A DNA stretch of 64,000 nucleotides from Octopus sinensis (Eukaryota), in contig NW_021832404.1 in NCBI RefSeq assembly GCF_006345805.1, positions 1-64,000 of the forward strand, read 5' to 3'. The position numbers and the translations under genes were made by a program. Of the stretch, positions 4,566-43,600 are shown piece by piece. The notes beneath the pieces are model-generated. The model was not told where the DNA came from. It did not search any database and was given only the letters and a program-made list of their open reading frames with translations. The number at the start of each line of letters is the position of its first letter. Position 1 is the first letter of the stretch.

Positions 4566-4599
<34 letters not shown>

Positions 4600-4857
4600 C
4601 CACCACCACCACCACCACCAACCACAACCACCACCACCACAACAACAACAACAAACAACAACACCACCACCACCACCACAACAACAACAACCAACAACAA
4701 CAACAACCACCACCACCACCACCACCACCACCACAACAACCACCACCACCACACCACCACCACCACAACAACAACAACAACAACAACCACCACCACCACC
4801 ACAACCACCACACCACCACCACCACCACCACCACCACCACCACCCCACCACAACAAC

Positions 4858-4891
<34 letters not shown>

Positions 4892-4920
4892 ACAACAACA
4901 GCAGCAGCAGCAGCAGCAAC
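3640..4920. repeat. Compound trinucleotide low-complexity tract (CAC/CAT/TAC/TCT/TCC/CAA/CAG)
   Basis: Successive trinucleotide runs, open in several frames on both strands. Confidence 0.9.
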
Positions 4921-4995
4921 AAAGCATTGGCGTAATTATCATGAACATCAACATCAACATCTTTATCAGCATCGCTGTCGTCATCATTAAGTGAA

Positions 4996-18221: not shown

Positions 18222-18425
18222 GTTAGTCTCTCACCACCGCTTGGCAACCACCGTTGGTTTGTATGCGTCCCCGTTAGTTAGCCGTTTCGGCATAAGAAGC
18301 CGACAGAATAAGTACCAAACCTTAAAAAATATATAAATATTGGGGTCGATTCGACTAAAACCTTCCAAGACAGTGTCCCAGCAAAGCCGCATTCCAATGA
18401 CTGATACACGTAAACCGTAACAGAA
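18222..18425 (+). mobile_element. Diverged SINE 3' half
   Basis: ccgacagaataagtacca...ggggtcgattcgactaaaa...cccagcaaagccgca..aatgactga, as in 5780-5885. Confidence 0.7.
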
Positions 18426-18547
18426 AAGGATGCTAAAAACAGCTGGATTTAACATTTCCAGCTGACACAGGAATAAAATTTGGCCAAAAGAAGTGTTAGT
18501 AATTGATTATTGAACGTTGAAAATCACTCCCCCAGACACAAAACGGT

Positions 18548-19625
18548 CCCTTTATCTCTGTCGGCACCCTCTTTGATCTCTTTCGACACCCGCTTTGATC
18601 TCTTTCGGTACTCCTCTTTCATCTCTGTCGGCACACGCTTTGATCTTTGTCAGTACTCCTCTTCGGTCACTGTCGACACCCTCTTTAATCTCTTTCGGTA
18701 CTCCTCTTTGATCTCTGTCGGCACCCTCTTTGATCTCCTTCGACACCCTCTTTGATCTCTTTCGGCAGCCTCTTTGATCTCTGATCGAAAGAGATCAAAG
18801 AGGGTGTCGACAGACATCAAAGGGGTTGCCGACAGAGACCAAAGAGGAGTACCGAAAAAGATCTCCTTCGGTACTCCTCTTTCATCTCTGCCGACATCAT
18901 CTTTGATCTTTTTCGGCACTCCTCTTTGATCTCTGTCGGCACACTCTTTGATCTATGTCGGCAACTTCTTTGATATTTTTCGGTACTCCTCTTTGATCCC
19001 TGTCGGCCCTTCTTTGATCTCTTTCGGCACCCTCTTTGATCTCTGTCGGCACTCTCTTTGATATCTGTCGGCACCTTCTTTGATCTTTTCGGTACTCCTC
19101 TTTCATCTCTTTCGGCACACTCTTTGATCTATGTCGGCACCCCATTGATCTTTTTCGGTACTCCTCTTTGGTCTCTGTCGGCAAGCTCTTTGATCTCTGT
19201 CGGCACCCTATTTGATCTCTTTCGACAACCTCTTAGATCTCTTTCGGCACTCCTTTTTCATCTCTTTCGGCATTCCTCTTTGATCTCTTTCGGCACCCTA
19301 TTTGATCTCTGTAGGCATCCTCTTTGATCTCTGTCGGTACACTATTTGATCTTTTTCGGTACTCCTCTTTGATCTCTGTCGGCACCGTCTTTGATCTATG
19401 TCGGCCCCTCTTTGATCTATTTCGGCACCTCTTTGATCTCTGTCGGCCCTTATTTAATCTCTTTCGACACCCTCTTTGATCTCTGTCGGCACCCTCTTTG
19501 ATCTCTGTCGGCACATTCTTTGATCTTTTTCGGTACTCCTCATTCATCTCTTTCGGCACTCTTTGATCTCTGTCGGCACCTCTTTGATCTTTTTCGGTAC
19601 TCCTCTTTGGTCTCTGTCGGGACCA
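18548..19625 (+). repeat. Unit A array (tctttgatctctgtcggcacc / tctttgatctctttcggtactcc)
   Basis: ~22-25-bp tandem periodicity; local inversion at ~18786-18863. Confidence 0.95.
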
Positions 19626-19634
19626 TCTTGACAT

Positions 19635-19753
19635 TTGAACCGGTTCGATCAGGTTTGAACCAGTTTGAACCGGTTTGATCCGGTTTGAACCGGTTTGATC
19701 GGTTTGATCCGGTTTGAACCGGTTTGAACCGGATCAAACCGGTTCAAACCGGT
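19635..19753. repeat. First unit B block ((TTGAACCGGT/TTGATCCGGT)n); others at ~19910-20021, 20831-20972, 21220-21391, 22428-22600, 23571-23771, 24751-24932, 25269-25410
   Basis: 10-bp periodicity centred on CCGG. Confidence 0.95.
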
Positions 19754-20175
19754 TCTTTGATCTCTGTCGACACCGTCTTTGATCTCTGACATTCCTGACA
19801 TTCCTGACATTCCTGACATTATAGACATTCCTGACATTCCAGACATTCCTGACATTCCAGACATTCCTGACATTCCAGACATTCCTGACATTCCGGACAT
19901 TCCAGACATACGAACCGGTTCGATCAGGGTTGATCAAATTTGAACCGATTTGATCCGGTTTCAACCGGTTTGAACCGGTTTGAGCCGGTTTGATCCGGTT
20001 TGATTCGGTTTGTACCGGTTTGTCGGTACCGTCTCTGATCTTTGTCGGCACACTCTTTGATCTCTGTCGGAACCGTCTTTGATCTTTGCCGGCACACTAT
20101 TTGATCTCTGACGGCACCGTCTTTGATCTCTGTCGGCACCGTCTTTGATCTCTGTCGGTACCGACTTTGACCTCT

Positions 20176-20670
20176 GACATTCCTGACATTCCAAACATTG
20201 CAGACATTGCAGACATTGCAGACATTGCAGACATTGCAGACATTCCTGACATTCCGAACATTCCAGACATTCCTGACATTCCTGGCATTCGAGACATTCC
20301 TGATATTCCGAACATTCCAGACATTCCTGGCATTCAAGACATTCCAGACATTCCAGACATTCCTGACATTCCAGACATTCCTAACATTCCAGACATTCTA
20401 GACATTCCTGACATTCCCGACATTCCCGACATTCCAAACATTCCTGACATTCCTGACATTCCAGATATTCCTGACATTCCAGATATTACTGACATTCCAG
20501 ATATTCCTGACATTCCAGACATTTCAGATATTCCTGACATTCCAGACATCCCAAACATTCCAGCTATTACTGACATTCCTGACATTTATGATATTCCTGA
20601 AATTCCAGACATTCCAGACATTCCTGAAATTCCTGGCATTCGAGACATTCCTGACATTCCAGACATTCCT
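20176..20670 (+). repeat. Longest unit C block ((GACATTCCW)n); ~12 such blocks between 19788 and 25697
   Basis: 9-bp periodicity, gacattcct/gacattcca. Confidence 0.95.
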
Positions 20671-21712
20671 CGTTTATCTCTGTCGGCACCGTCTTTGATC
20701 TCTGTCGGCACCGTCTTTGATCTCTGACATTCCTGACATTCCAAACATTCATGACATTCCAGACATTCCTGACATTCCAGACATTCCTGACATTCCAGAC
20801 ATTCCAGACATTCCAGACATTCCTGACATTCTGAACCGGTTCGATATGGCTTGATCCAGGTTGAACCGGTTTGATCTGGTTTGATCCGGTTTGAACCGAT
20901 TTGATCTGGTTTGAACCGGTTTGATTCGGTTTGAACCGGTTTGATCCGGTTTGATCCGGTTTGTACCGGTTTATCGGCACCGTCTTTGATCTTTGTCGGC
21001 ACACTCTTTGATCTATGATATTCCTGGCATTCCTTACATTCTAGACATTCCCGACATTCCCGACATTCATGACATTCCAGGCATTCCTGACATTCCAGAC
21101 ATTCCAGACATTGCTAACATTGCTGACATTCCAAACATTCCTGATATTCCAGACATTCCTGACATTCCTGACATTCCAGACATTCCAGACATTCCTGACA
21201 TTCCTGACATTCCTGACATTTGAACCGGTTCGATATGGCTTGATCGAGGTTGAACCGGTTTGATCTGGTTTGATCCGGTTTGAACCGATTTGATCTGGTT
21301 TGAACCGGTTTGATACGGTCTGAACCGGTTTGATCCGGTTTGATCCGGATTCAACCGGTTTGATCCGGTTTGAACCGGTTTAATCTGGTTTATCGGCACC
21401 GACTTTGATCTTTGTCGGCACACACTTTGATCTCTGACATTCCTGACATTCCAGATATTCCTGACATTTCAGACATTCCTGACATTCCTTACATTCCAGA
21501 CATTCCGAACATTCCAGACATTCCTGACATTCCTGATATTCCTGACATTCTAGACATTCCTGACTTTCCAGACATTCCTAACATTCCAGACATTCCTGAC
21601 ATTCAAGACATTCCAGACATTCCTTACATTCCAGACATTCCCGACATTCCACACATTCCTGGCATTCCAGACATTCCTGACATTCCAGATATTCCAGACA
21701 TTCCAGAAATTC

Positions 21713-22207
21713 CTCTTTGCCGAAACAGAGATGAAAGAGAAGTACCGACAGAGATCAAAGAAGGTGCCGACAGAGATCAAAGAGGGTGCCGAAAGAGATC
21801 AAATAAGGGCCGACAGAGATCAAAGAGGTTGCCGACAGAGACAAAAGAGGAGTACCGAAAAAGATCAAAGAGGGTACCGACAGAGATCAAAGAGGGTGCC
21901 GACAGAGATCAAAGAGGAGTACCGACAGAGATCAAAGAAGGTGCCGACAGAGATCAAAGAGGGTGCCCACAGAGATCAAAGAAGGTGCCGAAAGTGATCA
22001 AAGAGGAGTACCGAAAAAGATCAAAGAGGAATACCAAAAGAGATCAAAGAGGGTACCGACAGAGATCAAAGAAGGTACGAAAGAGATCAAAGAGGACTAC
22101 CGAAAGAGATCAAATAATGTGCCGACAGAGATTAAAGAGGGTGCCGAAAGAGATCAAAGAAGGGCCGACAGAGATCAAAGAGGAGTACCGAAAATGATCA
22201 AAGCTGG
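21713..22207 (-). repeat. Inverted unit A block (repeated at ~22778-23180 and ~23957-24358)
   Basis: gccgacagagatcaaagagggt is the reverse complement of unit A. Confidence 0.95.
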
Positions 22208-25200
22208 TGTCTCTGTCGGCACCTCTGATCTCTGACATTCCTCACATTCCAAACATTCTTGACATTCCAGGCATTCTTGACATTCCAGACAATCCTGACA
22301 TTACAGACATTCCTGGCTTTCCAGACATTCCTGACATTCCAGACATTCCTGACATTCCAAACATTCCTGACATTCCAGACATTCCTGACATTCCAGACAA
22401 TCCTGACATTCCAGACATTCCTAACATTTGAACCGGTTCGATATGGCTTGATCCATGTTGAACCGGTTTGATCTGGTTTGATCCGGTTTGAACCGATTTG
22501 ATCTGGTTTGAACCGGTTTGATACGGTCTGAACCGGTTTGATCCGGTTTGATCCGGTTTCAACCGGTTTGATCCGGTTTGAACCGGTTTAATCTGGTTTA
22601 TCGGCACCGTCTTTGATCTTTGTTGGCACACTCTTTGATCTCTGACATTCCTGACATTCCAGACATTCCTGACATTCCTGACATTCTAGACATTCCTGAC
22701 ATTCCAGACATTCCGAACATTCCAGACATTCCTGGCATTCCAGACATTCCTGACATTCCAGATATTCCAGACATTCCTCTTTGCCGACAGAGATCAAAGA
22801 GGAGTACCGACAGAGATCAAAGAAGGTGCCGACAGAGATCAAAGAGGGTCCCCATAGAGATCAAAGAGGGTGCCGACAGAGATCAAAGAGGAGTACCGAC
22901 AGAGATCAAAGAAGGTGCCGACAAAGATCAAAGAGGTTGCCCACAGAGATCAAAGAAGGTGCCGAAAGTGATCAAAGAGGAGTTCCGAAAAAGATCGAAG
23001 AGGAGTACCGAAAGAGATCAAAGAGGGTACCGACAGAGATCAAAGAAGGTACCGAAAGAGATCAAAGAGGACTACCGAAAGAGATCAAAGAATGTGCCGA
23101 CAGAGATTAAAGAGGGTGCCGAAAGAGATCAAAGAAGGGCCGACAGAGGTCAAAGAGGAGTACCGAAAATGATCAAAGCTGGTGTCTCTGTCGGCACCTC
23201 TGATCTCTGACATTCCTCACATTATAAACATTCTTGACATTACAGGCATTCCTGACATTCCAGCCATTCCTGACATTACAGACATTCCTGACATTCCAGA
23301 CATTCCTGACATTCCAGACATTCCTGACATTCCGAAAATTCCAGACATTCCTGACATTACTGGCTTCCAGACATTCCTGACATTCCAGACATTCCTGACA
23401 TTCCTGACATTCCTGACATTCCAGTCATTCCTGACATTCCACACATTCCTGACATTCCAGACATTTCAGATATTACTGACATTCCAGACATTCCAGAAAT
23501 CCTGATATTCCTGACATTCCTGACGTTCCAAACATTCCAGACATTCCTGACATCCAGACATTCCTGACATTTGAAACGGTTCGATATGGCTTGATCCAGT
23601 TGAACCGGTTTGATCTGGTTTGATCCGGTTTGAACCGATTTGATCTGGTTTGAACCGGTTTGATACGGTTTGAACCGTTTTGATCCGGTTTGATCCGTTT
23701 CAACCGGTTTGATCCGGTTTGATCCGTTTTCAACCGGTTTGATCCGGTTTGAACCGGTTTAATCTGGTTTATCGGCACCGTCTTTGATCTTTGTTGGCAC
23801 ACTCTTTGATCTCTGACATTCCTGACATTCCAGACATTCCTGACATTCCTGACATTCTAGACATTCCTGACATTCCTGACATCCAGACATTCCGAACATT
23901 CCAGACATTCCTGGCATTCCAGACATTCCTGACATTCCGAAAATTCCAGACATTCCTCTTTGCCGACAGAGATCAAAGAGGAGTACCGACAGAGATCAAA
24001 GAAGGTGCCGACAGAGATCAAAGAGGGTCCCCATAGAGATCAAAGAGGGTGCCCACAGAGATCAAAGAGGAGTACCGACAGAGATCAAAGAAGGTGCCGA
24101 CAAAGATCAAAGAGGTTGCCCACAGAGATCAAAGAAGGTGCCGAAAGTGATCAAAGAGGAGTTCCGAAAAAGATCGAAGAGGAGTACCGAAAGAGATCAA
24201 AGAGGGTACCGACAGAGATCAAAGAGGTACCGAAAGAGATCAAAGAGGACTACCGAAAGAGATCAAAGAATGTGCCGACAGAGATTAAAGAGGGTGCCGA
24301 AAGAGATCAAAGAAGGGCCGACAGAGATCAAAGAGGAGTACCGAAAATGATCAAAGCTGGTGTCTCTGTCGGCACCTCTGATCTCTGACATTCCTCACAT
24401 TATAAACATTCTTGACATTACAGGCATTCCTGACATTCCAGCCATTCCTGACATTACAGACATTCCTGACATTCCAGACATTCCTGACATTCCAGACATT
24501 CCTGACATTCCGAAAATTCCAGACATTCCTGACATTACTGGCTTTCCAGACATTCCTGACATTCCAGACATTCCTGACATTCCTGACATTCCTGACATTC
24601 CAGTCATTCCTGACATTCCACACATTCCTGACATTCCAGACATTTCAGATATTACTGACATTCCAGACATTCCAGAAATCCTGATATTCCTGACATTCCT
24701 GACGTTCCAAACATTCCAGACATTCCTGACATTCCTGACATTCCTGACATTTGAACCGGTTCGATATGGCTTGATCCAGGTTGAACCGGTTTGATCTGGT
24801 TTGATCCGGTTTGAACCGATTTGATCTGGTTTGAACCGGTTTGATACGGTTTGAACCGGTTTGATCCGGTTTGATCCGTTTCAACCGGTTTGATCCGGTT
24901 TCAACCGGTTTGATCCGGTTTAATCTGGTTTATCGGCACCGTCTTTGATCTTTGTCGGCACAAACGTTGATCTCTGACATTTCTGACATTCCAGACATTC
25001 CTGACATTTCAGACATTCCTGACATTCCAGACATTCCTTACATTCCAGACATTCCCGACATTCAAGACATTCCAGACATTCCAGACATTCCTGACATTCC
25101 TGACATTCCAAACATTCCTGACATTCTAGTCATTCCTGACATTCCACACATTCCTGACATTCCAGACATTTCAGATATTACTGACATTCCAGACATTTTA

Positions 25201-25697
25201 GAAATCCTGACATTCCTGACATTCCAAACATTCCAGACATTCCTGACATTCCTGACATTCCTGACATTTGAACCGGTTCGTTATGGCTTGATCCAGGTTG
25301 AACCGGTTTGATCTGGTTTGATCCGGTTTGAACCGATTTGATCTGGTTTGAACCGGCTTGATCCGGTTTGATCCGGTTTCAACCGGTTTGATCCGGTTTA
25401 ATCCGGTTTATCAGCACCGTCTTTGATCTTTGTCGGCACAAACTTTGATCTCTGACATTTCTGACATTCCAGACATTCCTGACATTTCAGACATTCCTGA
25501 CATTCCAGACATTCCTTACATTCCAGACATTCCCGACATTCCCGACATTCCCGACATTCCAGACATTCCTGACATTCCAGACATTCCTGACATTCCTGAC
25601 ATTCCAAACATTCCTGATATTCTAGACATTCCTGATATTCCAGACATTCCTGACATTCCAGATATTCCTGACATTCCAGACATTCCAGAAATCCTGA

Positions 25698-28600
25698 ACA
25701 TTTCAGGGAGGAGGATTTGAAGGTGAAGGTAAGGAATGGGAAGAAGGAATATTTAACATTCCAGGGAGGGGGATTTGAAGGTAAAGGGGAGGAATGGGAA
25801 GAAGGAATATTGATCATTCCAGAGAGAGGGATTTGAAGGTAAAGTGGAGGAATGGGAAGAAGGAATATTGAACATTCCAGAGAGGGGGATTTGAAGGTAA
25901 AGGGGAGGAAAGGGAAGAAGGAATATTGAACATTGCATAGGGGGGGTTTGAAGGTGAAGGGGAGGAATGGGAAGAAGGAATACGGAACATTCCAGAGAGG
26001 GAGATTTCAAGGTAAATTGAGGAATTGGAAGGAGGAATATTGAACATTCCAGAGAAAGGGATTTAAAGAGAAAGGGGAGGAATGGGAAGAAGGAATATTG
26101 AACATTCCAGAGAGGGGGATTTGAAGGTAAAGGGGAGGAATGGGAAGAAGGAATATTGAACATTCCAGGGAGGAGGATTTGATGGTGAAGTTAAGGAATG
26201 GGAAGAAGGATTATTGAACATTCCAGAGAGGGGGATTTGAAGGGAAGGGGGAGGAGTGGGAAGATGGAATATTAAACATTCCAGAGAGGGGGATTTGAAG
26301 GTGAAGGGGAGGAAGGGGAGGAAGGAACATTGAACATTGCAGAGAGGGGGATTTGAAGATGAAGGGGAGGAATGGGAAGAAGGAATATTGAACATTCCAG
26401 AGAGAGGGATTTGAAGGTAAAGGGGAGGAATGGGAAGAAGGAATATTGAACATTCCAGAGAGGGGGATTTAAAGGTGAAAGGGAGGAAGGGGTGGAAGGA
26501 ATATTGAACATTCCAGAGAGGGGGATTTTGAAGGGGAAGGGGAGGAAGGGGAGGAAGGGATACTGAACATTCCAGAGAGGGGGATTTGAAAGTGATCGTG
26601 AGGAAGGGGAGGAAGGAATATTGAACTTCCATCCGGGAGGGGGATTTGAAGGTGAAGGGGAGGAAGTGGAGAATGGAATACTTTACATTCCAGAGAGGGG
26701 GAATTGAAGGTAAAGGGGAGGAATGGGAAGAAGAGAATATTTAACCTTCAAGAGAGGGGGATTTGAAGGTGAAGGTAAGGAATGGGAGAAAGGAATATTG
26801 AACATTCCAGAGAGAGGGATTTGAAGGTAAAGTGGAGGAATGGGAAGAAGGAATATTGAACATTCCAAGAGGGGGATTTTGAAGGGGAAGGGGAGGAAGG
26901 GGAGGAAGGGATACTGAACATTCCAGAGAGGGGGATTTGAAAGTGATCGTGAGGAAGGGGAGGAAGGAATATTGAACATTCCAGGGAGGGGGATTTGAAG
27001 GTGAAGGGGAGGAAGTGGAGAATGGAATACTTTACATTCCAGAGAGGGGGAATTGAAGGTAAAGGGGAGGAATGGGAAGAAGGAATATTTAACCTTCAAG
27101 AGAGGGGGATTTGAAGGTGAAGGTAAGGAATGGGAGAAAGGAATATTGAACATTCGAGAGAGGGATTTGAAGGTAAAGGTGAGGAATGGAAGAAGGAATA
27201 TTGAACATTCCAGAGAGGGGGATTTGAAGGTAAAGGGGAGGAAGGGAAGAAGGAATATTGAACATTGCATAGGGGGTTTGAAGTGAAGGGGAGGAATGGG
27301 AAGAAGGAATACGGAACATTCCAGAGAGGGAGATTTCAAGGTAAATTGAGGAATTGGAAGGAGGAATATTGAACATTTCAGAGAAAGGGACTTAAATGGA
27401 AAGGGGAGGAATAGGAAGAAGGAATATTGAACATTCCAGAGAGGGGGATTTGAAGGTAAAGGGGAGGAATGGGAAGAAGGAATATTGAACATTCCAGGGA
27501 GGAGGATTTGATGGTGAAGTTAAGGAATGGGAAGAAGGATTATTGAACATTCCAGAGAGGGGGATTTTGAAGGAAGGGGGAGGAGTGGGAAGATGGAATA
27601 TTAAACATTCCAGAGAGGGGGATTTGAAGGTGAAGGGGAGGAAGGAACATTGAACATTGCAGAGAGGGGGATTTGAAGATGAAGGGGAGGAATGGAAGAA
27701 GGAATATGAACATTCCAGAGAGAGGGATTTGAAGGTAAAGGGGAGGAATGGGAAGAAGGAATATTGAACATTCCAGAGAGGGGGATTTAAAGGTGAAAGG
27801 GAGGAAGGGGTGGAAGGAATATTGAACATTCCAGAGAGGGGGATTTTGAAGGGGAAGGGGAGGAAGGGGAGGAAGGGATACTGAACATTCCAGAGAGGGG
27901 GATTTGAAGGTGATCGTGAGGAAGGGGAGGAAGGAATATTGAACATTCCAGGGAGGGGGATTTGAAGGTGAAGGGGAGGAAGTGGAGAATGGAATACTTT
28001 ACATTCCAGAGAGGGGGAATTGAAGGTAAAGGGGAGGAATGGGAAGAAGGAATATTTAACCTTCAAGAGAGGGGGATTTGAAGGTGAAGGTAAGGAATGG
28101 GAGAAAGGAATATTGAACATTACAGAAAAGGGGATTTGAAGGTAAAGGGAAGGAATGGGAAGAAGGAATATTGAACATTCCAGTGAGGGGATTTAAAGGT
28201 AAAGGGGTGGAATGGGAAGAAGGAATATTGAATATTCCAGGGAGGAGGATTTGAAGGTGAAGGTAAGGAATGGGAAGAAGGAATATTGAACATTACAGAG
28301 AAGGGGATTTGAAGGTAAAGGGGAGGAATGGGAAGAAGGAATATTGAACATTCCAGAGAGGGGGATTTGAAGGTAATGGGGAGGAATGGGAAGAAGGAAT
28401 ATTTAACCTTTCAAAGAGTGGGATTTGAAGGTGAAGGTAAGGAATGGGAAGAAGGAATATTGAACATTCCAGGGAGGGGGATTTGAAGGTGATTGGGAGG
28501 AATGGGAAGAAGGAATATTGAACATTCCAGAGAGAGGGATTTGCAGGTAAAGTGGAGGAATGGGAAGAAGGAATATTGAACATTCCAGAGAGGGGATTTG

Positions 28601-31600
28601 AAGGTAAAGGGGAGGAATGGGAAGAAGGAATATTGAACATTCCATAGGGGGGATTTGAAGGTGAAGTGGAGGAATGGCAAGAAGTAATATTGAACATTTC
28701 AGAGAGGGGGATTTAAAGGTAAAGGGGAGGAATGGGAATAAGGAATATTCAACATTCCACAGAAGGGGATTTGAAGGTAAAGGGGAGGAATGGGGAGGAG
28801 GAATATTGAACATTCCAGAGAGGGAGATTTGAAGGTAAAGGCGAGGAATGGGAAGAAGGAATATTGAACATTCCAGAGAGGGGGATTTAAAGGGGAAGGT
28901 GAGAAATGGGAAGAAGGAATATTGAACATTCCAGAGAGGGAGATTTGAAGGTAAAGGGGAGGAATGGGAAGAAGGAATATTGAACATTCCAGAGAGGGGG
29001 ATTTGAAGGCGAAGGGGAGGAAGTGGAGAATGGAATACTGAACATTCCAGAGAGGGGGAATTGAAGGTAAATAGGAGGAATGCGAAAAAGGAATATTGAA
29101 CATTACAGAGAAGGGGATTTGAAGGTGAATTGGAGGTAGGGGTGGAAGGAATATTGAACATTCCAGAGAGGGGGATTTGAAGATGAAGGGGAGGAAGGGG
29201 AGGAAGGAATATTGAACATTCCACTGGGGGGATTTGAAGGTGAAGGTGAGGAATGGGAAAAGTAATATTAAACATTCCAGAGACGGAGATTTCAAGGTAA
29301 AGGGGATGAGTGGGAAGAAGGAATATTGAACATTCCAGAGAGGGGGATTTGAAGGTGAAAGGGATGAAGGGGAGGAAGGAATATTGAACGTTCCAGAGAG
29401 GGAGATTTGAAGGTGAAGGGGAGGAAGGGGAGGAAGGAATATTGAACATTCCAGAGAGTGGTATTTGAAAGTGGATAGGAGGATGCAGAGGAGGGAATAC
29501 TGAACATTCCAGAGAGGGGGATTTGAAGGTGAAGGGGAGGAAGGGGAGGAAGGAATATTGAACATACCAGAGAGGGGGATATGAAGGTGAAGGGGAGGAA
29601 GGGGGAAGGAATATTGAACATTCCACAGAGGGGGATTTGAAGGTAAATGGGAAGAATGGGAAGAAGGAATATTTAACATTCCAGGGAGAGGGATTTGAAG
29701 GTAAAGTGGAGGAATGGGAAGAAGGAATATTGAAGATTACAGAGAGGAGTATTTGAAGGTGAAGGGAAGGAATGGGAAGAAGGAATATTGAACATTACAG
29801 AGAAGGGGATTTGAAGGTAAAGGGGAGGAATGGGAAAAAGGAATATTCAACATTCCACAGAGGGGGATTTGTAGGTGAAGGGGAGAAAGGGGAGGAAGGA
29901 AGACTGAACATTCCAGAGAGGAGGATTTGAAGGTAAAGTAAGGAATGGGAAGAAGGAATATCTAACATTCCAGAGAGGGGGATTTGAAGGTGAAGGTAAG
30001 GAATGGGAGAAAGGAATATTGAACATTCCAGGGAGTGGGATTTCAAGGTAAAGGGGAGGAATGGGAAGAAGGAATATTGAACATTCCAGAGAGGGGGATT
30101 TAAAGGTAAATGGGTGGAATGGGAAGAAGGAATTTTGAACATTCCAGAGAAAGGGATTTGAAGGTAAAGAGGAGGAATGGGAAGAAGGAATATTTAACCT
30201 TTCAAAGAGGGGGATATGAAGGCGAAGGTAAGGAATGGGAAGGAGGAATATTGTACATTCCATAGAGGGGGATTTGAAGGTAAAGGGGAGGAATGGGAAG
30301 AAGTAATATTGAAAATTGCAGAGAGGGGGATTTGAAGGTAAAGGGGAGGAATGGGAAGAAGGTATATTGAACATTCCAGAGAGGGTGATTTGAAGGTAAA
30401 GGGGAGGAATGGGAAGAAGGAATATTGAACATTCCACGGAGGAGGATTTGAAGGTGAAGGTAAGGAATGGGAAGAAGGAAAATTGAACATTACAGAGAAG
30501 GGGATTTGAAGGTAAATGGGAGGAATGGGAATAAGGAATATTCAACATTCCACAGAAGGGGATTTGAAAGTGAAGGTGAGGAATGGGAAGAAGGAATATT
30601 GAACATTCCAGAGAAGGGGATTTGAAGGTAAATGGGAGGAATGGGAATAAGGAATATTCAACATTCCACAGAAGGGGATTTGAAGGTGAAGGTGAGGAAT
30701 GGGAAGAAGGAATATTGAACATTCCAGAGAGGGGGATTTGAAGGTGAAGGGGATGAATGTGAAGAAGGAATATTCAACATTCCAGAGAGGGGGATTTGAA
30801 GGTGAAGGGGAGGAAGAGGAGGAAGGAACATTGAACATTGCAGAGAGTGGGATTTGAAGATGAAGGGGAGGAAGGGGAGGAATGAATATTGAACATTCCA
30901 GAGAGGGGTATTTGAAGGTGAAGGGAGGAATGGAAGAAGGATATTCAACATTCCAGAGTGTAGTATGTGAAGGTAAAGGGGAGGAATGGAAAAGGAATAT
31001 TGAACATTCCAGAGAGGGGGATTTGAAGGTGAAGGGGAAGAAGGGAGGAAGGGATACTGAACATTCCAGAGAGGGGATTTGAAGGTGAATTGGAGGTAGG
31101 GGTGGAAGGAATATTGAACATTCCAGAGAGGGGGATTTGAAGATGAAGGGGAGGAAGGGGAGGAAGGAATATTGAACATTCCAGAGAGTGGTATTTGAAG
31201 GTAAACGGGAGGAATGGGAACAAGAAGTATTGAACATAACAGGAGGGGGATTTGAAGGTAAAGGGGAGGAATGGGAAGAAGGAATATTTAACGTTCCAGA
31301 GAGGGGGATTTAAGGTAAAAGGGTGGAATGTGAAGAAGGAATATTGAACATTCCAGAGAAAGGGATTTGAAGGTAAGGGGAGGAATGGGAGAAGGAATAT
31401 TGAACATTACAGGGAGGAGGATTTGAAGGTGAAGGGAAGGAATGGGTAGAAGGAATATTGAACATTCAGAGAAGGGGATTTGAAGGTAAAGGGGAGGAAT
31501 GGGAAGAAGGAATATTCAACATTCCACAGAGGGAGACTTGAAGGTAAATGGGAGGAATGGGAAGAAGGAATATTTAACCTTTCAATGAGGTGGATTTGAA

Positions 31601-34600
31601 GGTGAAGGTAAGGAATGGGAAGAAGGAATATTGAACATGCCAGAGAGGGGGATTTGAAGGTAAAGGGGAGGAATGGGAAGAAGTAATATTGAACATTCCA
31701 GAGAGGGCGATTTGAAGGTAAAGAGGAGGAAGGGGAAGAAGGAATTTTGAACATTCCAGAGGGGGATTTGAAGGTAAAGGGGAGGAATGGGAAGAAGGAA
31801 TATTGAACATTCCATGGAGGAGGATTTGAAGGTGAAGGTAAGGAATGGGAAGAGGTATATTGAACATTACAGAGAAATGGATTTGAAGGTAATGGGAGGA
31901 ATGGGAATAAGGAATATTCAACATTCCACAGAAGGTGATTTGAAGGTAAGGGGAGGAAGGGGAATAAGGAATATTGAACATTCCATAGAGATGGATTTGA
32001 AGGTAAAGGGTAGGAATGGGAAGAAGGAATACTGAACATTCCAGAGAGGGATATTTGAAGGTAAAGGGGAAGAAGGGGAAGAAGAATATTGAACATTCCA
32101 GAGAGGGGATTTGAAGGTAAATGGGAGGAATGGGAAGAAGGAATATTAAACATTCCAGAGAGGGGGATTTGAAGGTGATGGGTAGGAAGGGGAGGAAGGA
32201 ACATGAACATTGCAGAGAGTGGGATTTGGAGGTGAAGGGGAGGAAGGGGAGGAATGAATATTGAACAATCCAGATAGGGGGATTTGAAGGTGAAGGGAGG
32301 AATGGAAGAAGGAATATTCAACATTCCAGAGAGTAGTTGTGAAGGTAAAGGGGAAGAATGGGAAGAAGGAATATTGAACATTACAGAGAGGGGATTTGAA
32401 GGTGAATTGGAGGAAGAGGAGGAAGGAATATTGAACATTCCAGAGAGGGGGATTTGAAGGTGAAGGGGAGGAAGGAATATTGAACATTCCAGAGAGGGGG
32501 ATTTGAAGGTGAAGGGGAGCAAAGGAGGAAGGAATATTGAACATTCCAGAGAGGGGGATTTGAAGATGAAGGGGAGGAAGGGGAGAAGGAATATTGAACA
32601 TTCCAGAGAGGGGGATTTGAAGGTGAAGGGAGGAAGAAATATTGAACATTGTAGAGAGGGGGATATGAAGGTGAAGGGGAGGAAGGGGAGGAAGGAATAT
32701 TGAACATTTCAGAGAGGTGGATTTGAAGTTGAAGGGGAGGAGTGGAGGAAGGAATATTGAACATTCCAGAGAGTGGATTTGAAGGTGAAGGGGAGGAGAG
32801 GAGAATGAATACTGAACATTCCAGAGATGGGGATTTCAAGGTGAATTGGAGTATGGGTGGAAGGAATATTGAACATTCCAGAGAGGGGATTTGAAGATGA
32901 AGGGGAGGAAGGGGAGGAAGGAATATTGAACATTCCACTGGGGGGATTTGAGGTGAAGGGAGGAATGGGAAAAGGAATATTGAACATTCCAGAGACGGAG
33001 ATTTCAAGGTAAAGGGGATGAGTGGGAAAAGGAATATTGAACATTCCAGAGAGGGGGATTTGAAGGTGAAAGGGATGAAGGGGAGAAGGAATATTGAACA
33101 TTCCAGAGAGGAGATTTGAAGGTGAAGGGGAGGAAGGGGGAGGGATATTGAAAATTCCAGAGAGTGGTATTTGAAAGTGAAGGGGAGGAAGGGGAGGAAG
33201 GAATATTGAACATACCAGAGAGGGGGATATGAAGGTGAAGGGGAGGAAGGGGTGGAAGGAATATTGAACATTCCAGAGAGTGGTATTTGAAAGTGAAGGG
33301 GAGGAAGGGGAGAAAGGAATACTGAACATTCCATAGAGGGGGATTTGAAGGTAAAGGGGAGGAATGGGATGGAGGAATATTGAACATTCCAGAGATGGAG
33401 ATTTAAAGGTAAAGGGGTGGAATGGGTAGAAGGAGTATTGAACATTCCAGAGAGAGGGATTTGAAGGTAATGGGGAGGAATGGGAAGAAGGAATATTGAT
33501 CATTCCAGGGAGGAGGATTTGAAGGTGAAGAGAAGGAATGGGAAGAAGGAATATTGAACATTACAGAGAAGGGGATTTGAAGGTATAGGGGAGGAAGAGA
33601 AAGAAGGAATATTCAACATTCCACAGAGGGGGATTTGAAGGTAAACGGGAGGAATGGGAACAAGAAGTATTGAAACATATGTGGAGGGGATTTAAGGTAA
33701 AGGGGAGGGTGGGAAGAAGGAATATTGAAAAGAGAAGGATTTAAAGTAAAAGGGTGGAATGGGAAGAGGAATATTCCAGAGAAAGGGATTTGAAGGTAAG
33801 GGGAAGATGGGAAGAAGGAATATTTGACCATTACAGGGAGGAGGATTTGAAGGTGAAGGGAAGGAATGGGAAGAAGGAATATTGAACATTACATAGAAGG
33901 GATTTGATGGTAAAGGGGAGGAATGGGAAGAAGGAATATTCAACATTCCACAGAGGGAGACTTGAAGGTAAATGGGAGGAATGGGAAGAAGGAATATTTA
34001 ACCTTTCAAGAGGTGGATTTGAAGGTGAAGTAAGGAATGGGAAGAAGGAATATTGAACATTCCAGAGAGGGGGATTTGAAGGTAAAGGGGAGGAATGGGA
34101 TGAAGTAATATTGAACATTCCAGAGAGAGGTGATTTGAAGGTAAAGAGGAGGAATTGGAAGAAGGAATATTGAACATTCCAGAGAGGTGATTTGAAGGCA
34201 AAGGGGAGGAATGGGAAGAAGGAATATTGAACATTCCATGGAGGAGGATGTGAAGGTGAAGGTAAGGAATGGAGGAAGGAATATTGAACATTACAGAGAA
34301 AGGGATTTGAAGGTAAATGGGAGGAAGGGAATAAAGAATATTCAACATTCCAAGAAGGGGGATTTGAAGGTAGGGGAGGAAGGGGAAGAAGGAATATTGA
34401 ACATTCCATAGAGATGTATTTGAAGGTAAAGGGGAGGAATGGGAAGAAGGAATATTGCATCCAGAGGGGATATTTGAAGGTAAAGGGGAGGAGGGGAAGA
34501 AGAATATTGAACATTCCAGAGAGGTGGATTTGAAGGTAAATGGGAGGAATGGAAGAAGGAATATTAACATTCCAGAGAGGGGGATTTGAAGGTGAAGGCT

Positions 34601-37600
34601 AGGAAGGGGAGGAAGGAACATTGAACATTGCAGAGAGTGGGATTTGAGATGAAGGGGAGGAAGGGGAGGAATGAATATTGAACATTCGAGAGAGTAGTAT
34701 GTGAAGTAAGGTGGAAGAATGGGAAGAAGGAATATGAACATTACAGAGAGGGGATTTGAAGGTGAAGGGGAGGAAGAGGAGAAGGAATATTGAACATTCA
34801 AGAGAGGGGTAATTTGAATGTGAAGGGGAGGAAGGAATATTGAACATTCCAGAGAGAGGGAGTTGAAGGTGAAGGGGAGAAGGGGAGGAAAGGAATATTG
34901 AACATTCCTAGAGAGGGGGATTTGAAGGTGAAGGGAGGAGGAGGGAGGAAGGAATATTGAACATTCCAGAGAGGTGGATTTGAAGGTGAAGGGGCGGAAG
35001 GGAGAAAGGAATATTGAACATTACAAAGAGGGGGATTCAAGGTGAAGGGGAGGAAGGGTGGATGAATATTGAACATTCCAGAGAGGGGATTTGAAGGTGA
35101 AGGGGAGGAATGGGAGGAAGAATATTGAACATTCCAGAGAGGGGGATTTTAAGGTTTAAAGGGGAGGAATGGAAGAAGGAATAATGAACATTCCAGAGAG
35201 GGATTTTAAGGTTAAGGGGAGGAATGGGAAGAAGGAATATTGAACATTCCAGAGAGGGGTGATTTGAAGGTGAAGGGGAGGAAGTTGAGGAAGAAATATT
35301 AAACATTCCAGAGAGGGGGATTTGAAGGTGAAGGTATGGAATGGGAAGAAGGAATAATGAACATTCCAGAGAGGGGGATATGAAGGTGAAGGAGAGGAAG
35401 GGGAGAAAGGAATACTGAACATTACAAAGATGGGGATTTCAAGGTGAAGGGGAGGAAGAGGAGGATGGAATAATGAAGATTCCAGAGAGGGGGATTTAAT
35501 GGTGAAGGGGAGGAATGGGAAGAAGGAATATTGAACATTCCAGAGAGGGGGATTTGAAAGTAAATCGGAGGAATGGGGAAGAAGGAATATTGAACATTCC
35601 AGAGAGGGGGATTTGAAGGTAAAGGGGAGGAAGGGAAGAAGGAAATATTGAAAATTCCAGCGGGGGGATTTGAAGGTAAATGGGATGAATGGGAGAAGGA
35701 ATATTAACATTCCAGAGAGGGGGATTTGAAGGTGAAGAGAGCATGGGAAGAAGCAATATTGAAGATTCCAGAGATGGGATTTGAAGGTGAAAGGGAGAAA
35801 GGGGAGAAATGAATATTGAACATTTCAGAGAGGAGGATTTTGAAGGTAAAGGGGGAAATGGGAAGAAAGAATATTGAACATTCCAGAGATGGGATTGAAG
35901 GTGAAGTGAGGAAGGAGAGGAAGGGATATCTGACATTCCAAGAGGGGGATTTGAAGGTAAGGGGAGGAAGGGCAGGAAGGAATATTGACATGCCAGAGAG
36001 GGGGATTTGAGTGAAGGGGAGAAGTGGAGAAAGGAATATTGAATATTTGCAGAGAGGGGGATTTGAAGGTAAATGAGGAATGGGAAGAAGGAATACTTAT
36101 CCTTCCAGAAGGGGATTTGAAGGTGAAGGTAGGAATGGGAAAAGGAATATTGAACATTCCAGGATTGGGATTTCAAGGTAAGGGGAGGAATGGGAAGAAG
36201 GAACATTGAACATTCCAGAGAGAGAGATTTCAAGGTAAAGGGGAAGAATGTGAAGAAGGAATATTGAGCATTCCAGAGAGAGGGATTTAAAGGTAAAGGG
36301 GAGGAATTGGAAGAAGGAACATTGAACATTACTGAGAAGGGGTTTTGAAGGTAAAGGCGAGGAATGGGAAGAAGGAATATTGAACATTCCAGGGAGGAGG
36401 ATTTGAAGGTAAATGGGAGGAATGGGAAGAAGGAATATTGAACATTCCAGGGAGAGATTTGAAGGTGAAGGTAAGGAATGGGAATAAGGAATATTGAACA
36501 TTACTGAGAAGGGGATTTGAAGTAAAGGGGAGGAATGGGAAGAAGGAATATTGAACATTCCATACAGTGGGATTTGAAGGTGAAGGGTAGGAATGAAGAA
36601 TGAATATTGAACATTCCATAGAGGGGGATGTGAAGTTGAAGGGGAGGATTGGAAGAAGGAATATTGAACATTCCAGAGAGGGGGATTTGAAGGTAAAGGT
36701 GAGGAAGGAGAGAAGGAATATTGAACATTCCAGAGAGGGGGATTTGAAGGTGAAGGGGAGGAAAAGGAGGAAGGAATATTAACATTCCAGAGGGGGGATT
36801 TGTGAGAAAAAAGAAAGAAGGGAAAAGGGGAGGAAGTAATATTGAAACATTCCAGAGAAGGGATATGAAGGTAAAGGGGAGGAAGGGAGGAAGGAATATT
36901 GAACATTCCAAGTGGGGGATTTGAAGGTGAAGGGGAGGAAGGGGAGGAAGGATACTGAACATTCCAGAGAGGGTGGATTTGAAGGTAAAGGGGAGGAATG
37001 GGAGAAGGAATATTGAACATTCCAGAGAGTGGGATTTGACGGTAAGGGGAGGAATGGGAGAAGGAATATTCAACATTCCAGAGAGGGGGATGTGAAGTTA
37101 AGGGGAGGAATGGGAAGAAGGAATATTGAACATTCCAGAGAGGGGGATTGAAGGTAAAGAGAGCAATGGGAAGAAGCATATTGAAGATTCCAGAGAGGGT
37201 GATTTGAAGGTGAAAGGGAGGAAGGGTGAAAGGAATATTGAACATTTCAGAGAGGGGGATTTGAAGGTAAAGGGGGGAAAATGGGAAGAAGGAATATTGA
37301 ACATTCTAGAGATGGGGATTTGAAAGTGAAGGGAGAGGAAGGGGATGAAGGAATATTGAACATTCAGAGAGGGGGATTTGAAGGTGAAGGGGAGGAAGGA
37401 GAGAAGGATCTGTGAACATTCCAGAGAGGGGGATTTGAAGGTAAAGGGACGAATGGGATGAAGGAATATTGAACATTAAGAGAGGGGGATTTGAAGGTGA
37501 AGGGGAGGAATGGAGGAAGGAATATTGAACATTCCAGAGAGGGGGATTTGAAAGTGAAAGGGAGGAAGTGCAGAAAGGAATACTGAACATTGCAGAGAGG

Positions 37601-40600
37601 GGGATTTTAAGGTAAATGGAGGAATGGGAAGAAGGAATATTTACCTTCCAGAGAGGGGGATTTGAAGGTGAAGGTAAGGAATGGGAAGAAGAATATTGAA
37701 CATTCCATAGAGAGAGATTTCAAGGTAAAGGGAGGAATGGGAAGAAGGAATATTGAACATTCCAGAGAGGGGGATTTAAGGTAAGGGGAGGAATGGGAAG
37801 AAGGAACATTGAACATTACAGAGAGGGGATTTGAAGGTAAGGGGAGGAAGGGAAGAAGGAATATTGAACATTCCAGGAGGAGGATTTGAAGGTGAAGGTA
37901 AGGAATTGGAAGAAGGAATATTGAACATTACAGAGAAGGGGATTTTGAAGGTAAAGGGAGGAATGGGAAGAGGAATATTGAACATTCCAGAGAGGGGATT
38001 TGAAGGTAAGGTGAGGAATTGGGAATGTGGGAATATTGAACATTCCAGAGAGGGGATTTGAGGGTGAAGGGAAGAAGAGGTGAGGAAGGGAATATGAACA
38101 TTTCAGAGGGGGGTTTGAAGATGAAGGGGAGGAAGTGGAGAAGGAATATTGAACATTCAAGAGAGGGGATTTGAAGGTGAAGTGGGAGGAAGGAGGAAGG
38201 AATATTGAACATTCCAGAGAGGGGGATTTGAAGGTGAGGGGAGGAAGGGGAGGAAGGATATTGAACATTCCAGAGAGGGGAGTTGAAGTTGAAGGTGAGA
38301 AGGGGAGGAAGGGGACAAAGGATACTGAACATTCCAGAGAGGGGATTTGAAGGTGAAGGGGAGGAAGGGAGGAAGGATATTTGAACATTCCAGAGAGGGG
38401 GATTTGAAGGTGAGGGAGAGGAATTGTAGGAAGGAATACTGAACATTCCAGAGAAGGGAATTTGAAGGTGAAGGGGAGGAATGGGGAGGAAGGAATATTG
38501 AACATTCCAGAGAGGATGATTTTAAGGTAAGGGGAGGAATGGGAAGAAGGAATATTGAACATTCAGAGAGGGGATTTGAAGGTGAAGGGGAGGAATGGGA
38601 TAAGGAATATTGAACATTCCGAGAGGGGGAATTTAAGGTGAAGGGGAGGAATCTGAAAAAGGAATATTGAACATTCCAGAGAGGGGAATTTAAAGGTAAG
38701 GTAAGGAATGGGAAGAAGGAATATTGAACATTCCAGAGAGGGGGATTTTAAGGTAAGGTAAGAAATGGAGGAAGGTAAGGAATGGTGAAGGTAAGGAATG
38801 GTGAAGGTGAAGGTAAGGAATATTGAACATTCCAGAGAAGGATTTGAGGTGAAGGGAGGAATGTGAAGAAGGAAATATTGACATTCCAGAGAGGGGGATT
38901 TGAAGATGAAGGGGAGGAGGGGAGGAAGGAATATTGAACATTCCACTGGGGATTTTGAACGTGAAGGGAGAATGGAGAAAGGAATATTGAACATTCCAGA
39001 GACGGAGATTTCAAGGTAAGGGATGAGTGGGAAGAAGGAATATTGAAACATTCCAGAGAGGGGGATTTTGAAGGTGAAAAGGATGAGGGAGGAAGGAATA
39101 TTGAACATTCCAGAGAGGGAGATTTGAAGGTGAAGGGGAGGAAGGGGAGGAAGGAATATTGAACATTCCAGAGAGTGGTATTTGAAAGTGAAGGGGAGGA
39201 AGGGGAGGAAGGAATATTGAACATACCAGAGAGGGGGATATGAAGGTGAAGGGGGAGGAGGGTGAAGGAATATTGAACATTCCAGAGAGTGGTATTTGAA
39301 AGTGAAGGGGAGGAAGGGGAGAAAGGAATACTGAACATTCCATAGAGGGGGATTTGAAGGTAAAGGGGAGGAATGGGATGGAGGAATATTGAACATTCCA
39401 GAGATGGAGATTAAAGGTAAAGGGGTGGAATGGGTAGAAGGAGTATTGAACATTCCAGAGAGAGGGATTTGAAGGTAATGGGGAGGAATGGGAAGAAGGA
39501 ATATTGATCATTCCAGGGAGGAGGATTTGAAGGTGAAGAGAAGGAATGGGAAGAAGGAATATTGAACATTACAGAGAAGGGGATTTGAAGGTAAAGGGGA
39601 GGAAGAGAAAGAAGGAATATTCAACATTCCACAGAGGGGGATTTGAAGGTAAACGGGAGGAATGGGAACAAGAAGTATTGAACATATGTGGGAGGGGGAT
39701 TTTAAGGTAAAGGGGAGGAGTGGGAAGAAGGAATATTGAAAATTCCAGAGAAGGGGATTTAAAGGTAAAAGGGTGCAATGGGAAGAAGGAATATTGAACA
39801 TTCCAGAGAAAGGGAATTGAAGGTAAAGGGGAAGAATGGGAAGAAGGAATATTGAACATTACAGGGAGGAGGATTTGAAGGTGAAGGGAAGGAATGGGAA
39901 GAAGGAATATTGAACATTACAGAGAAGGGGATTTGATGGTAAAGGGGAGGAATGGGAAGAAGGAATATTCAACATTCCACAGAGGGAGACTTGAAGGTAA
40001 ATGGGAGGAATGGGAAGAAGGAATATTTAACCTTTCAAAGAGGTGGATTTGAAGGTGAAGGTAAGGAATGGGAAGAAGGAATATTGAACATTCCAGAGAG
40101 GGGGATTTGAAGGTAAAGGGGAGGAATGGGATGAAGTAATATTGAACATTCCAGAGAGGGTGATTTGAAGGTAAAGAGGAGGAATGGGAAGAAGGAATAT
40201 TGAACATTCCAGAGAGGGTGATTTGAAGGCAAAGGGGAGGAATGGGAAGAAGGAATATTGAACATTCCATGGAGGAGGATGTGAAGGTGAAGGTAAGGAA
40301 TGGGAGGAAGGAATATTGAACATTACAGAGAAGGGGATTTGAAGGTAAATGGGAGGAATGGGAATAAAGAATATTCAACATTCCACAGAAGGGGATTTGA
40401 AGGTAAGGGGAGGAAGGGGAAGAAGGAATATTGAACATTCCATAGAGATGTATTTGAAGGTAAAGGGGAGGAATGGGAAGAAGGAATATTGAACAATCCA
40501 GAGAGGGATATTTGAAGGTAAAGGGGAGGAGGGGAAGAAGGAATATTGAACATTCCAGAGAGGGGGATTTGAAGGTAAATGGGAGGAATGGGAAGAAGGA

Positions 40601-43600
40601 ATATTAAACATTCCAGAGAGGGGGATTTGAAGGTGAAGGCTAGGAAGGGGAGGAAGGAACATTGAACATTGCAGAGAGTGGGATTTGAAGATGAAGGGGA
40701 GGAAGGGGAGGAATGAATATTGAACATTCGAGAGAGTATTATGTGAAGGTAAAGGGAAGAATGGGAAGAAGGAATATTGAACATTACAGAGAGAGGGGGA
40801 TTTGAAGGTGAAGGGGAGGAGGGAGAAAGGAATATATGAACATTCAGAGAGGGGTTTGAAGGTGAAGGGGAGGAAGGAATATTGAACATTCCAGAGAGAG
40901 GGAGTTGAAGGTGAAGGGGAGGAATGGGAGGAAGCAATATTGAACATTCTAGAGAGGGGGATTTGAAGGTGAAGGGGAGGAAGGGGAGGAAGGAATATTG
41001 AACATTCCAGAGGAGGTGGATTTGAAGGTGAAGGGCGGAAGGGGAGAAAGGAATATTGAACATTACAAAGATGGGGATTTCAAGGTGAAGGGGAGGAAGG
41101 GATGGATGGAATATTGAACATTCCAGAGAGGGGGATTTGAAGGTGAAGGGGAGGAATGGCAGGAAGGAATATTGAACATTCCAGAGAGGGGGATTTTAAG
41201 GTTAAGGGGAGGAATGGGAAGAAGGAATAATGAACATTCCAGAGAGAGGGATTTTAAGGTTAAGGGGAGGAATGGGAAGAAGGAATATTGAACATTCCAG
41301 AGGGGGGGATTTGAAGGTGAAGGGGAGGAAGTTGAGGAAGAAATATTAAACATTCCAGAGAGGGGGATTTGAAGGTGAAGGTATGGAATGGGAAGAAGGA
41401 ATAATGAACATTCCAGAGAGGGGATATGAAGGTGAAGGAGAGGAAGGGAGAAGGAATACTGAACATTACAAAGATGGGGATTTCAAGGTGAAGGGAGAAG
41501 AGGAGGATGGAATAATTGAAGATTCCAGAGAGGGGGATTTAATGGTGAAGGGAGGAATGGAGAAGGAATATTGAACATTCCAGAGAGGGGGATTTGAAAG
41601 TAAATCGGAGGAGGAAAAGGAATATTGAACATTCAGAGAGGGGATTTGAAGGTAAAGGGGAGGAATGGGAAGAAGGAATATTGAAAATTCCAGCGAGGGG
41701 ATGTGAAGGTAATGGGATGAATGGGAAGAAGGAATATTTAACATTCCAGAGAGGGGGATTTGAAGGTGAAAGAGAGCAATGGGAAGAAGCAATATTGAAG
41801 ATTCCAGAGATGGGGATTTGAAGGTGAAAGGGAGAAAGGGGAGAAATGAATATTGAACATTTCAGAGAGGGGGATTTGAAGGTAAAGGGGAGAAATGGGA
41901 AGAAGGAATATTGAACATTCCAGAGATGGGATTGAAGGTGAAGGTGAGGAAGGAGAGGAAGGGATACTGAACATTCCACAGAGGGGGATTTGAAGGTGAA
42001 GGGGAGGAAGGGCAGGAAGGAATATTGAACATGCCAGAGAGGGGGATTTGAAGGTGAAGGGGAGGAAGTGGAGAAAGGAATACTGAATATTGCAGAGAGG
42101 GGGATTTGAAGGTAAATGGAGGAATGGGAAGAAGGAATACTTATCCTTCCAGAGAGGGGGATTTGAAGGTGAAGGTAAGGAATGGGAAAAAGGAATATTG
42201 AACATTACAGGGAGTGGGATTTCAAGGTAAAGGGAGGAATGGGAAGAAGGAACATTGAACATTCCAGAGAGAGAGATTTCAAGGTAAAGGGGAGAATGTG
42301 AAGAAGGAATATTGAACATTCCATAGAGAGGGATTTAAAGGTAAAGGGGAGGAATTGGAAAAGGAACATTGAACATTACTGAGAGGGGGTTTTGAAGGTA
42401 AAGGCGAGGAATGGAAGAAGGAATATTGAACATTCCAGGAGGAGGATTTGAAGGTAAATGGGAGGAATGGGAAGAAGGAATATTGAACATTCCAGGGAGG
42501 AGGATTTGAAGGTGAAGGTAAGGAATGGGAAGAAGGAATATTGAACATTACTGAGAAGGGGATTTGAAGGTAAAGGGGAGGAATGGGAAGAAGGAATATT
42601 GAACATTCCATACAGTGGGATTTGAAGGTGAAGGGGAGGAATATGAAGAATGAATATTGAACATTCCATAGAGGGGGATGTGAAGTTGAAGGGGAGGATT
42701 GTGACGAAGGAATATTGAACATTCCAGAGAGGGGGATTTGAAGGTAAAGGTGAGGAAGGAGAGGAAGGAATATTGAACATTCCAGAGAGGGGGATTTGAA
42801 GGTGAAGGGGAGGAAAAGGAGGAAGGAATATTAAACATTCCAGAGAGGGGGATTTGAAGATGAAGGGGAGGAAGGGGAGGAAGTAATATTGAACATTCCA
42901 GAGGAAGGGATATGAAGGTAAAGGGGAGGAAGGGGAGGAAGGAATATTGAACATTCCAGAGTGGGGGATTTGAATGTGAAGGGGAGGAAGGGGAGAAAGG
43001 AATACTGAACATTCCAGAGAGGGGGATTTGAAGGTAAAGGGGAGGAATGGGAAGAAGGAATATTGAACATTCCAGAGAGTGTGATTTGACGGTAAAGGGG
43101 AGGAATGGGAAGAAGGAATATTCAACATTCCACAGAGGGGGATGTGAAGTTAAAGGGGAGGAATGGGAAGAAGGAATATTGAACATTCCAGAGAGGGGGA
43201 TTTGAAGGTAAAAGAGAGCAATGGGAAGAAGCAATATTGAAGATTCCAGAGAGGGTGATTTGAAGGTGAAAGGGAGGAAGGGGTGAAAGGAATATTGAAC
43301 ATTTCAGAGAGGGGGATTTGAAGGTAAAGGGGAGAAATGGGAAGAAGGAATATTGAACATTCTAGAGATGGGGATTTGAAAGTGAAGGAGAGGAAGGGGA
43401 TGAAGGAATATTGAACATTCCAGAGAGGGGGATTTGAAGGTGAAGGGGAGGAAGGAGAGAAAGGGATACTGAACATTCCAGAGAGGGGGATTTGAAGGTA
43501 AAAGGGACGAAGGGGATGAAGGAATATTGAACATTACAGAGAGGGGGATTTGAAGGTGAAGGGGAGGAAGGGGAGGAAGGAATATTGAACATTCCAGAGA

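Follow-up and report, generated by a model that had tools for sequence, protein, structure and literature searches.

The question raised by this locus is whether a dense row of sites resembling those bound by TCF amounts to a Wnt-responsive element driving a particular gene, or whether it has some other origin and role. In the window (i.e., the whole 64,000-nucleotide stretch of DNA analyzed here), the repeat called unit A forms an array of 47 units on the minus strand (18548..19629), the 22/23-bp monomer of which consists of an RCCG Helper-like core, an HMG core, and a spacer of 4-5 bp; repeat detection returned a 22-bp tandem repeat at 18550-19629 (49 copies, 74% matches). The anchored units are spaced 20-23 bp apart: 44 of the 47 lie on the minus strand, where they read RCCGA(C/A)AGAGATCAAAG, and the three others form an inverted patch on the plus strand (18784..18844). 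The sequence AGATCAAAG is exact in 26/47 units, and the near matches to unit A in the window (<=2 mismatches) number 100 vs 0.01 expected. The original prediction had described (G/A)CCGACAG-type units recurring on the minus strand, with GCCG and ACCG in alternation. The units are indeed present, 35/47 of them starting with RCCG (27 GCCG and 8 ACCG) and seven with GTCG, but the alternation is not strict, ACCG occurring at about every third to fourth unit.

The left flank of the array (18405..18547) forms a junction that is not common to other arrays. The contigs of organisms A, B, and C read through this flank into the first unit, that of B differing by one letter and one gap, and the insertion is therefore older than these very close relatives; in organism D, which accounts for a small share of the data, the left junction is not spanned. 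On the other side, the array stands at the head of a mosaic of units A, B, and C that extends over 7 kb, after which comes a 58-bp satellite continuing past the end of the window. The short blocks of the mosaic (19634..25702) are composed of the 10-bp unit C, the 9-bp unit B, and unit A, with higher-order duplications of ~1.1 kb. Unit A is present there in blocks of 7 copies on the minus strand (20021..20176), 22 copies on the plus strand, i.e., in the orientation opposite to that of the main array (21725..22203), and 18 copies on the plus strand (22782..23178), the last of these being duplicated at 23961..24356 (18 copies, plus strand); further unit A blocks reach position 25437. We take unit C to be Grainyhead-like and unit B to be TEAD-like. 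The 58-bp satellite (25695..64000, plus strand, ~665 copies in the window) contains the TEAD-like word ACATTCC and runs on to ~78,500 of the contig, and a second mosaic containing unit A is located on its far side. Long imperfect ACC/CAA and ACCA microsatellites occur to the left of the array (3695-4922 and 11695-12886 of the window).

The array in the window is one of at least 80 dispersed arrays of a 22/23-bp satellite, and is not a local feature. The unit A 19-mer has 3,284 exact copies in the 2.72-Gb genome (reversed control: 0). The 80 array loci fetched are a sample of all the arrays, and three of them look like haplotig duplicates; about 10,700 units were aligned (10,761 in the half-site counts). 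The size of the arrays ranges from ~20 to >400 units (0.4-12 kb). They occupy unrelated sites, where they are often next to or nested in other satellites, transposon pieces, and telomeric repeats (four loci), and the 33 placed loci of the first set lean toward scaffold ends (median 0.24, KS p=6e-4). The same genome carries protocadherin and zinc-finger expansions and, presumably, octopus-type SINEs. A variant lacking both half-sites was seen at locus L035. At L050:2400-6830, a 460-bp inverted duplication (a SINE plus adjoining DNA) flanks the unit-A array, which suggests template switching at insertion. None of the sequencing runs listed as containing the repeat is of RNA. A literature search, the coverage of which left subscription journals largely outside, yielded nothing on a TCF-site satellite or on the unit A repeat in cephalopods.

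Each unit A contains an HMG core (CTTTGATC) and an RCCG, spaced as in the AK4/AK5 arrangements; AK denotes an HMG site followed by a spacer and GCCG, and KK0 a GCCG directly before the HMG site (Table S1, PMC4154663). The HMG core CTTTGWWS has 29 matches in the window array and is kept in 75% of the 10,761 units, the short Helper RCCG being kept in 76% of them. The match to the 11-bp HMG consensus SCTTTGWWSWW is imperfect (one match in the window array), the first S being replaced in the units by T and the last W mostly by C. The spacer between HMG core and Helper measures 4 bp in 3,762/5,841 units and 5 bp in 1,940/5,841, corresponding to AK4 and AK5, and the variation in unit length is confined to this spacer. 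The best binding was reported with AK6, the fly optimum, and FF0, that of KK0 being intermediate, and human TCF1E prefers AK2-9 (PMC4154663); AK4/AK5 falls within this favoured range and near the fly optimum. Every Helper in a tandem array is at the same time the KK0 partner of the HMG site directly after it and an AK4/AK5 partner. The pair originally pointed out is the KK0 side of the arrangement, and the AK4/AK5 relation of the same Helper to the next HMG site is nearer the optimum. The Helper sites said to be built into the array are likewise there in the short RCCG form, which is the human in vitro motif, but hardly ever in the longer RCCGCC form enriched in vivo (PMC4267635): the extended Helper (RCCGCC or GCCGCCR) was found 0 times in the window array and in 10/5,841 units of the genome sample. 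The sequence GCCGACA, present in 18/47 units of the window array, does match GCCGCCA at 6/7 positions, as predicted; in flies, all seven Helper bases matter (PMC4154663).

A TCF gene was identified in the host genome at C6:82.244-82.283 Mb (best match LEF1, E=7.6e-17). Based on the diagnostic features given in PMC3896468, its C-clamp is intact, with four cysteines, a 12-residue first gap, and a basic stretch. The HMG-box matches across the genome number 41. The search for a beta-catenin-binding domain gave no match, a result that does not show absence. Satellites are relatively more methylated in an octopus (PMC9476566), and at unit A such methylation of the CpG within RCCG might restrict binding.

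The frequency of the variants of the two half-sites was analyzed in a unit alignment giving equal weight to all positions, from which L075, L079, and L063 had been excluded on the presumption that they were duplicates (L063 is a separate Helitron copy rather than a duplicate). Each of the 66 possible substitutions served as a test unit, with permutation within mutation type. In 39 loci, motif-breaking alleles were 0.46x as frequent as neutral alleles (stratified by mutation type, p=5e-5), the depletion being significant for the HMG core alone (p=1e-4) and for RCCG alone (p=0.002). The hold-out set, consisting of 35 of 36 further loci found by their variant patterns and delimited by TRF, gave a breaking/neutral ratio of 0.58 (p=4e-4). 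The per-position conservation put forward initially as a check thus came out in favour of the HMG core and RCCG over neutral positions. Leaving out the G-run and positions 6 and 8 does not abolish the depletion (pooled 0.58, p=0.002), and the true phase comes first among the 22 rotations. Within the unit, conservation is highest in the HMG core and CCG. The use of medians in place of means weakens the depletion (hold-out p=0.066), and an unstratified position-level comparison between CCG and non-core positions was not significant (p=0.53). The RCCG-breaking change C2>T is common (~9%; above 10% in 20/51 arrays), and both half-sites are kept in only 58% of units vs 57% expected if they were independent.

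In the non-Helitron arrays, the breaking/neutral ratio falls from the rare to the common frequency classes (1.17, 0.69, 0.59, and 0.11). Alleles exceeding 25% in any of 51 arrays include 1/32 breaking vs 13/34 neutral ones (p=4e-4); at >10%, the corresponding values are 13/32 vs 21/34 (p=0.07). Among single variants genome-wide occurring in the same AGA context, those at the neutral G8 number 181 vs 83 at the breaking G17. The fact that there is no bias in the rare variants and a strong one in the common variants argues for a filter and against mutation bias. Since common variants are shared between loci, the independent events number tens, not thousands, and it may have been in an older source array that the filter was at work.

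Both junctions are common to 16/76 arrays: on the left, these have 1.29 kb of flank in common, and on the right 43 bp, terminated by a hairpin and CTAG. In view of these terminal features, we take the shared-flank element to be a Helitron. It often adjoins AT repeats, shows 89-98% identity between separate sites, and has a 3' end with 20,597 exact matches in the genome. This composite non-autonomous element, which contains a SINE and, at a distance of 43 bp from the 3' end, an array of the 23-bp unit A, is present at L058, L063, L129, L131-L134, L148-L155, and L159 (on C8, C16, C6, and one small contig); it moved one unit-A lineage to ~15 sites, and the length of the array differs between copies (~2.3 to 7.5 kb). 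The Helitron-borne arrays are younger than the others (1.15 vs 1.86 differences per unit), and no motif depletion was detected in 14 such loci (fold 0.94, p=0.39; 1.04 without biased positions), which means that mutation alone does not make the pattern, and also that the constraint is not universal. The flanks of the window array belong to no shared-flank group, and this array is hence outside the Helitron set. Target duplications were absent from 64/66 blocks and present in 2/66, and three arrays break into known repeats, from which 3-253 bp have been lost, a pattern that repair-mediated insertion would be expected to leave (PMC7403614).

The reading that we favour, with a probability of roughly 0.55, is that the unit A satellite is likely to be bound by the C-clamp-bearing TCF of the host, and that it likely constitutes a scattered TCF/beta-catenin platform rather than the enhancer of one gene. 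At the sequence level, the bipartite combination of HMG and Helper sites initially proposed appears to hold, judging by the conservation of the cores, the restriction of length changes to the spacer, and the C-clamp of the host protein. The arrays would expand by unequal exchange and would relocate by break repair, without target duplication, and TCF occupancy might act as a filter, bindable units being preferentially kept or copied. Such a filter may operate in each array, or may have operated earlier, in a source array that passed on its variants. One unit among the 100-400 copies of an array remote from genes can be of little consequence to the host, and a filter at array level, or a drive-like one, therefore seems likelier than selection on the enhancer of a gene.

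The alternative that survives best, although we hold it to be rather unlikely, is that of a neutral satellite, the TCF likeness of which arose by chance or from one old enhancer fragment, and the uneven conservation of which reflects a few founder variants amplified by drift. A shuffled unit holds the HMG 8-mer in 0.77% of cases, and the HMG site together with RCCG in a favoured geometry in 0.16%; with many satellites set against many motifs, some match is to be expected. The depletion holds with alleles as the test unit and grows with frequency, and in each of the two locus sets the best of the 22 8-bp windows coincides exactly with the HMG core, neither of which findings sits well with drift; nor does the position-1 change from G to A, a common variant that the R of RCCG tolerates. 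More in keeping with neutrality are the young Helitron-borne arrays, which evolve without constraint, the loss of both half-sites from the L035 variant, and the possibility that units B and C may be slippage or deletion products of unit A.

The platform reading might be carried further and drive invoked, TCF-occupied units being preferentially copied and moved, and a library of one-factor satellites (TCF+Helper, TEAD, MEF2, POU, CCAAT, and others) in mosaics titrating or clustering Wnt, Hippo, and muscle regulators; we regard this as doubtful. 

The claim that this is a natural TOPflash-like enhancer found no support: the arrays belong to a satellite dispersed over at least 80 loci among transposon debris, in part Helitron-borne, and with no consistent target gene in the flanks scanned. 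That they are Wnt-responsive cis-regulatory modules kept for driving neighbour genes is accordingly improbable, even though the geometry and density of the sites are like those of synthetic reporters and the left junction of the window array was found under three organism labels. The longest flank ORFs were scanned (145/929 plus 60/517, i.e., 205), and the 32 with Pfam matches comprised 29 transposon domains, one C2H2, one GPCR, and one DUF. Only two of the 205 are host-gene ORFs, in flanks of a few kb, and enhancers can act from farther; the C2H2 ORF is 1.9 kb from one array and the GPCR ORF ~11 kb from another. A short array (L040, C6:82.612 Mb) lies ~330 kb downstream of the TCF gene, but zinc-finger ORFs lie in between. 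The first and last units of L040 make up one complete monomer, and the flank of this C6 array is itself a dispersed repeat. The window array adjoins a 50-kb satellite on an unplaced contig, and the arrays vary from ~20 to >400 units with unshared flanks, which does not speak for enhancers either. A link with the protocadherins was rejected, as the clusters on C14 (0.8-13.4 and 57.2-60.9 Mb) contain no known array. No link with zinc-finger clusters was seen among the 150 candidates scored out of the 18,110 candidate places in the genome, and C18-C30, where many of the top zinc-finger matches are located, contain none of the 83 unit-A matches listed.

Several other origins were rejected. At L061, L128, and L181, a unit-A array interrupts a dispersed copy of 18S rDNA in its 5' part, with the same junction on C14, C10, and C6. 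In the rDNA-like loci L191-L199 and L201, the sequence upstream of the ETS (as much as 10 kb) carries no unit-A array, so that the 18S/ETS junction reflects the insertion of an array into a dispersed copy and is not a sign of an rDNA spacer origin. An origin as a LINE promoter or tail was rejected, since LINEs and arrays showed no consistent arrangement. Reintegration of circles was rejected, the complete-monomer sign being found in 6/33 (p=0.79) of a set inflated by Helitron copies, as was a viral origin (two single matches in viral contigs and zero arrays). A coding reading was rejected because neither the 22/23-bp nor the 10-bp period is divisible by three.

Least probable of the readings weighed is a real constraint due to another binder (a C2H2 zinc-finger protein, another HMG-box factor, or a stand-alone C-clamp protein) silencing or tethering the satellite: zinc-finger and HMG-box candidates abound, the Helper is atypical, and a conservation of 95-97% is also reached at positions 5, 7, 9, and 22, which belong to neither core, but the constrained positions form two blocks fitting the two TCF domains, with length variation only in the spacer between them.

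As a predicted TCF platform, unit A resembles the HMG-Helper pairs of Drosophila TCF/Pangolin and the synthetic AK/KK reporters (Archbold et al., 2014, PMC4154663) in its HMG core, GCCG-type Helper, AK4/AK5 and KK0 spacings, and C-clamp TCF, but its Helper is GCCGACA or GCCGAAA instead of GCCGCCR. According to the same source, such dense clusters of sites are absent from natural Wnt modules, from which unit A differs in that each locus holds tens to hundreds of copies in tandem, without a linked target gene. Like the Human Satellite 3 platform for TEAD/YAP (Franklin et al., PMC11526998), it is a satellite of signalling-factor motifs, and TEAD-like units adjoin it; unlike HSat3, it forms arrays of 0.4-12 kb at no fewer than 80 sites instead of megabase blocks, is located outside the rDNA spacer, and carries a bipartite TCF site the binding of which is predicted, whereas binding to HSat3 has been shown. 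The small dispersed clusters inserting into satellites and the higher-order mosaics recall the euchromatic Rsp-like/1.688 satellites of Drosophila (Sproul et al., 2020, PMC7403614), in which complete-monomer signs point to circle reintegration, a sign not enriched in unit A; the motif-level constraint seen in unit A has no counterpart in the available part of that paper. As in the Helentron-borne Cg_HINE arrays of the Pacific oyster (PMC7492417), the 16 shared-flank arrays are the cargo of one non-autonomous rolling-circle element, but unit A rides only secondarily, in a few copies of the element, and most arrays, including that in the window, are outside it.

Dense arrays of TCF sites have been regarded as laboratory constructs, and here >10,000 units of bipartite type are present in one animal genome, with a purifying-selection-like signature at the bases that would be read by the two TCF domains. 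If they are bound, these arrays could buffer or compartmentalise Wnt/beta-catenin signalling, and could seed new Wnt-responsive elements at their landing sites. Whether protein binding shapes satellite turnover, which is a long-standing question, would then become testable at single-base resolution.

Among 46 stretches, unit B was found in 18 and unit C in 10. Other neighbouring satellites contain what we take, from labels chosen by eye, to be MEF2-, octamer-, CCAAT-, E2F-, and ETS/Rel-like words. Six of 15 motif windows in 10 satellite families fall within the best-conserved tenth (octamer 1/86, CCAAT 1/27, MEF2 2/20, E2F-like 3/34, and two overlapping windows 5/58), and nine fall outside it, so that a genome library of factor-site satellites is a lead only. 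Satellites of 13 and 20 bp joined to units A, B, and C were found at L077:4511-7160, L140:7483-8623, and L163:3-9988 (>700 copies in L163), each of them holding a perfect CTA(A/T)4TAG, presumably of MEF2 type. At L131:2-825, L136:5744-8565, and L160:7677-9997, a 34-bp satellite occurs with a 52-bp repeat, a GPCR ORF lying ~5 kb off; we assume the words in the former to be E2F-, DRE-, and CRE-like and those in the latter to be ETS-, Rel-, and STAT-like. Satellites of 86 and 21 bp with the octamer word are present at L175:2601-10000, L056:1-911, and L077:5837-6013, and the octamer is the best-conserved 8-bp window of the 86 in the 86-mer. A 13-bp satellite with ~1,200 copies (L164, L165, and L066:1-2606) flips its orientation every ~1.3-1.9 kb, and L138:5243-10000 and L169 carry an array of unit C alone, with >1,400 copies (>14 kb).
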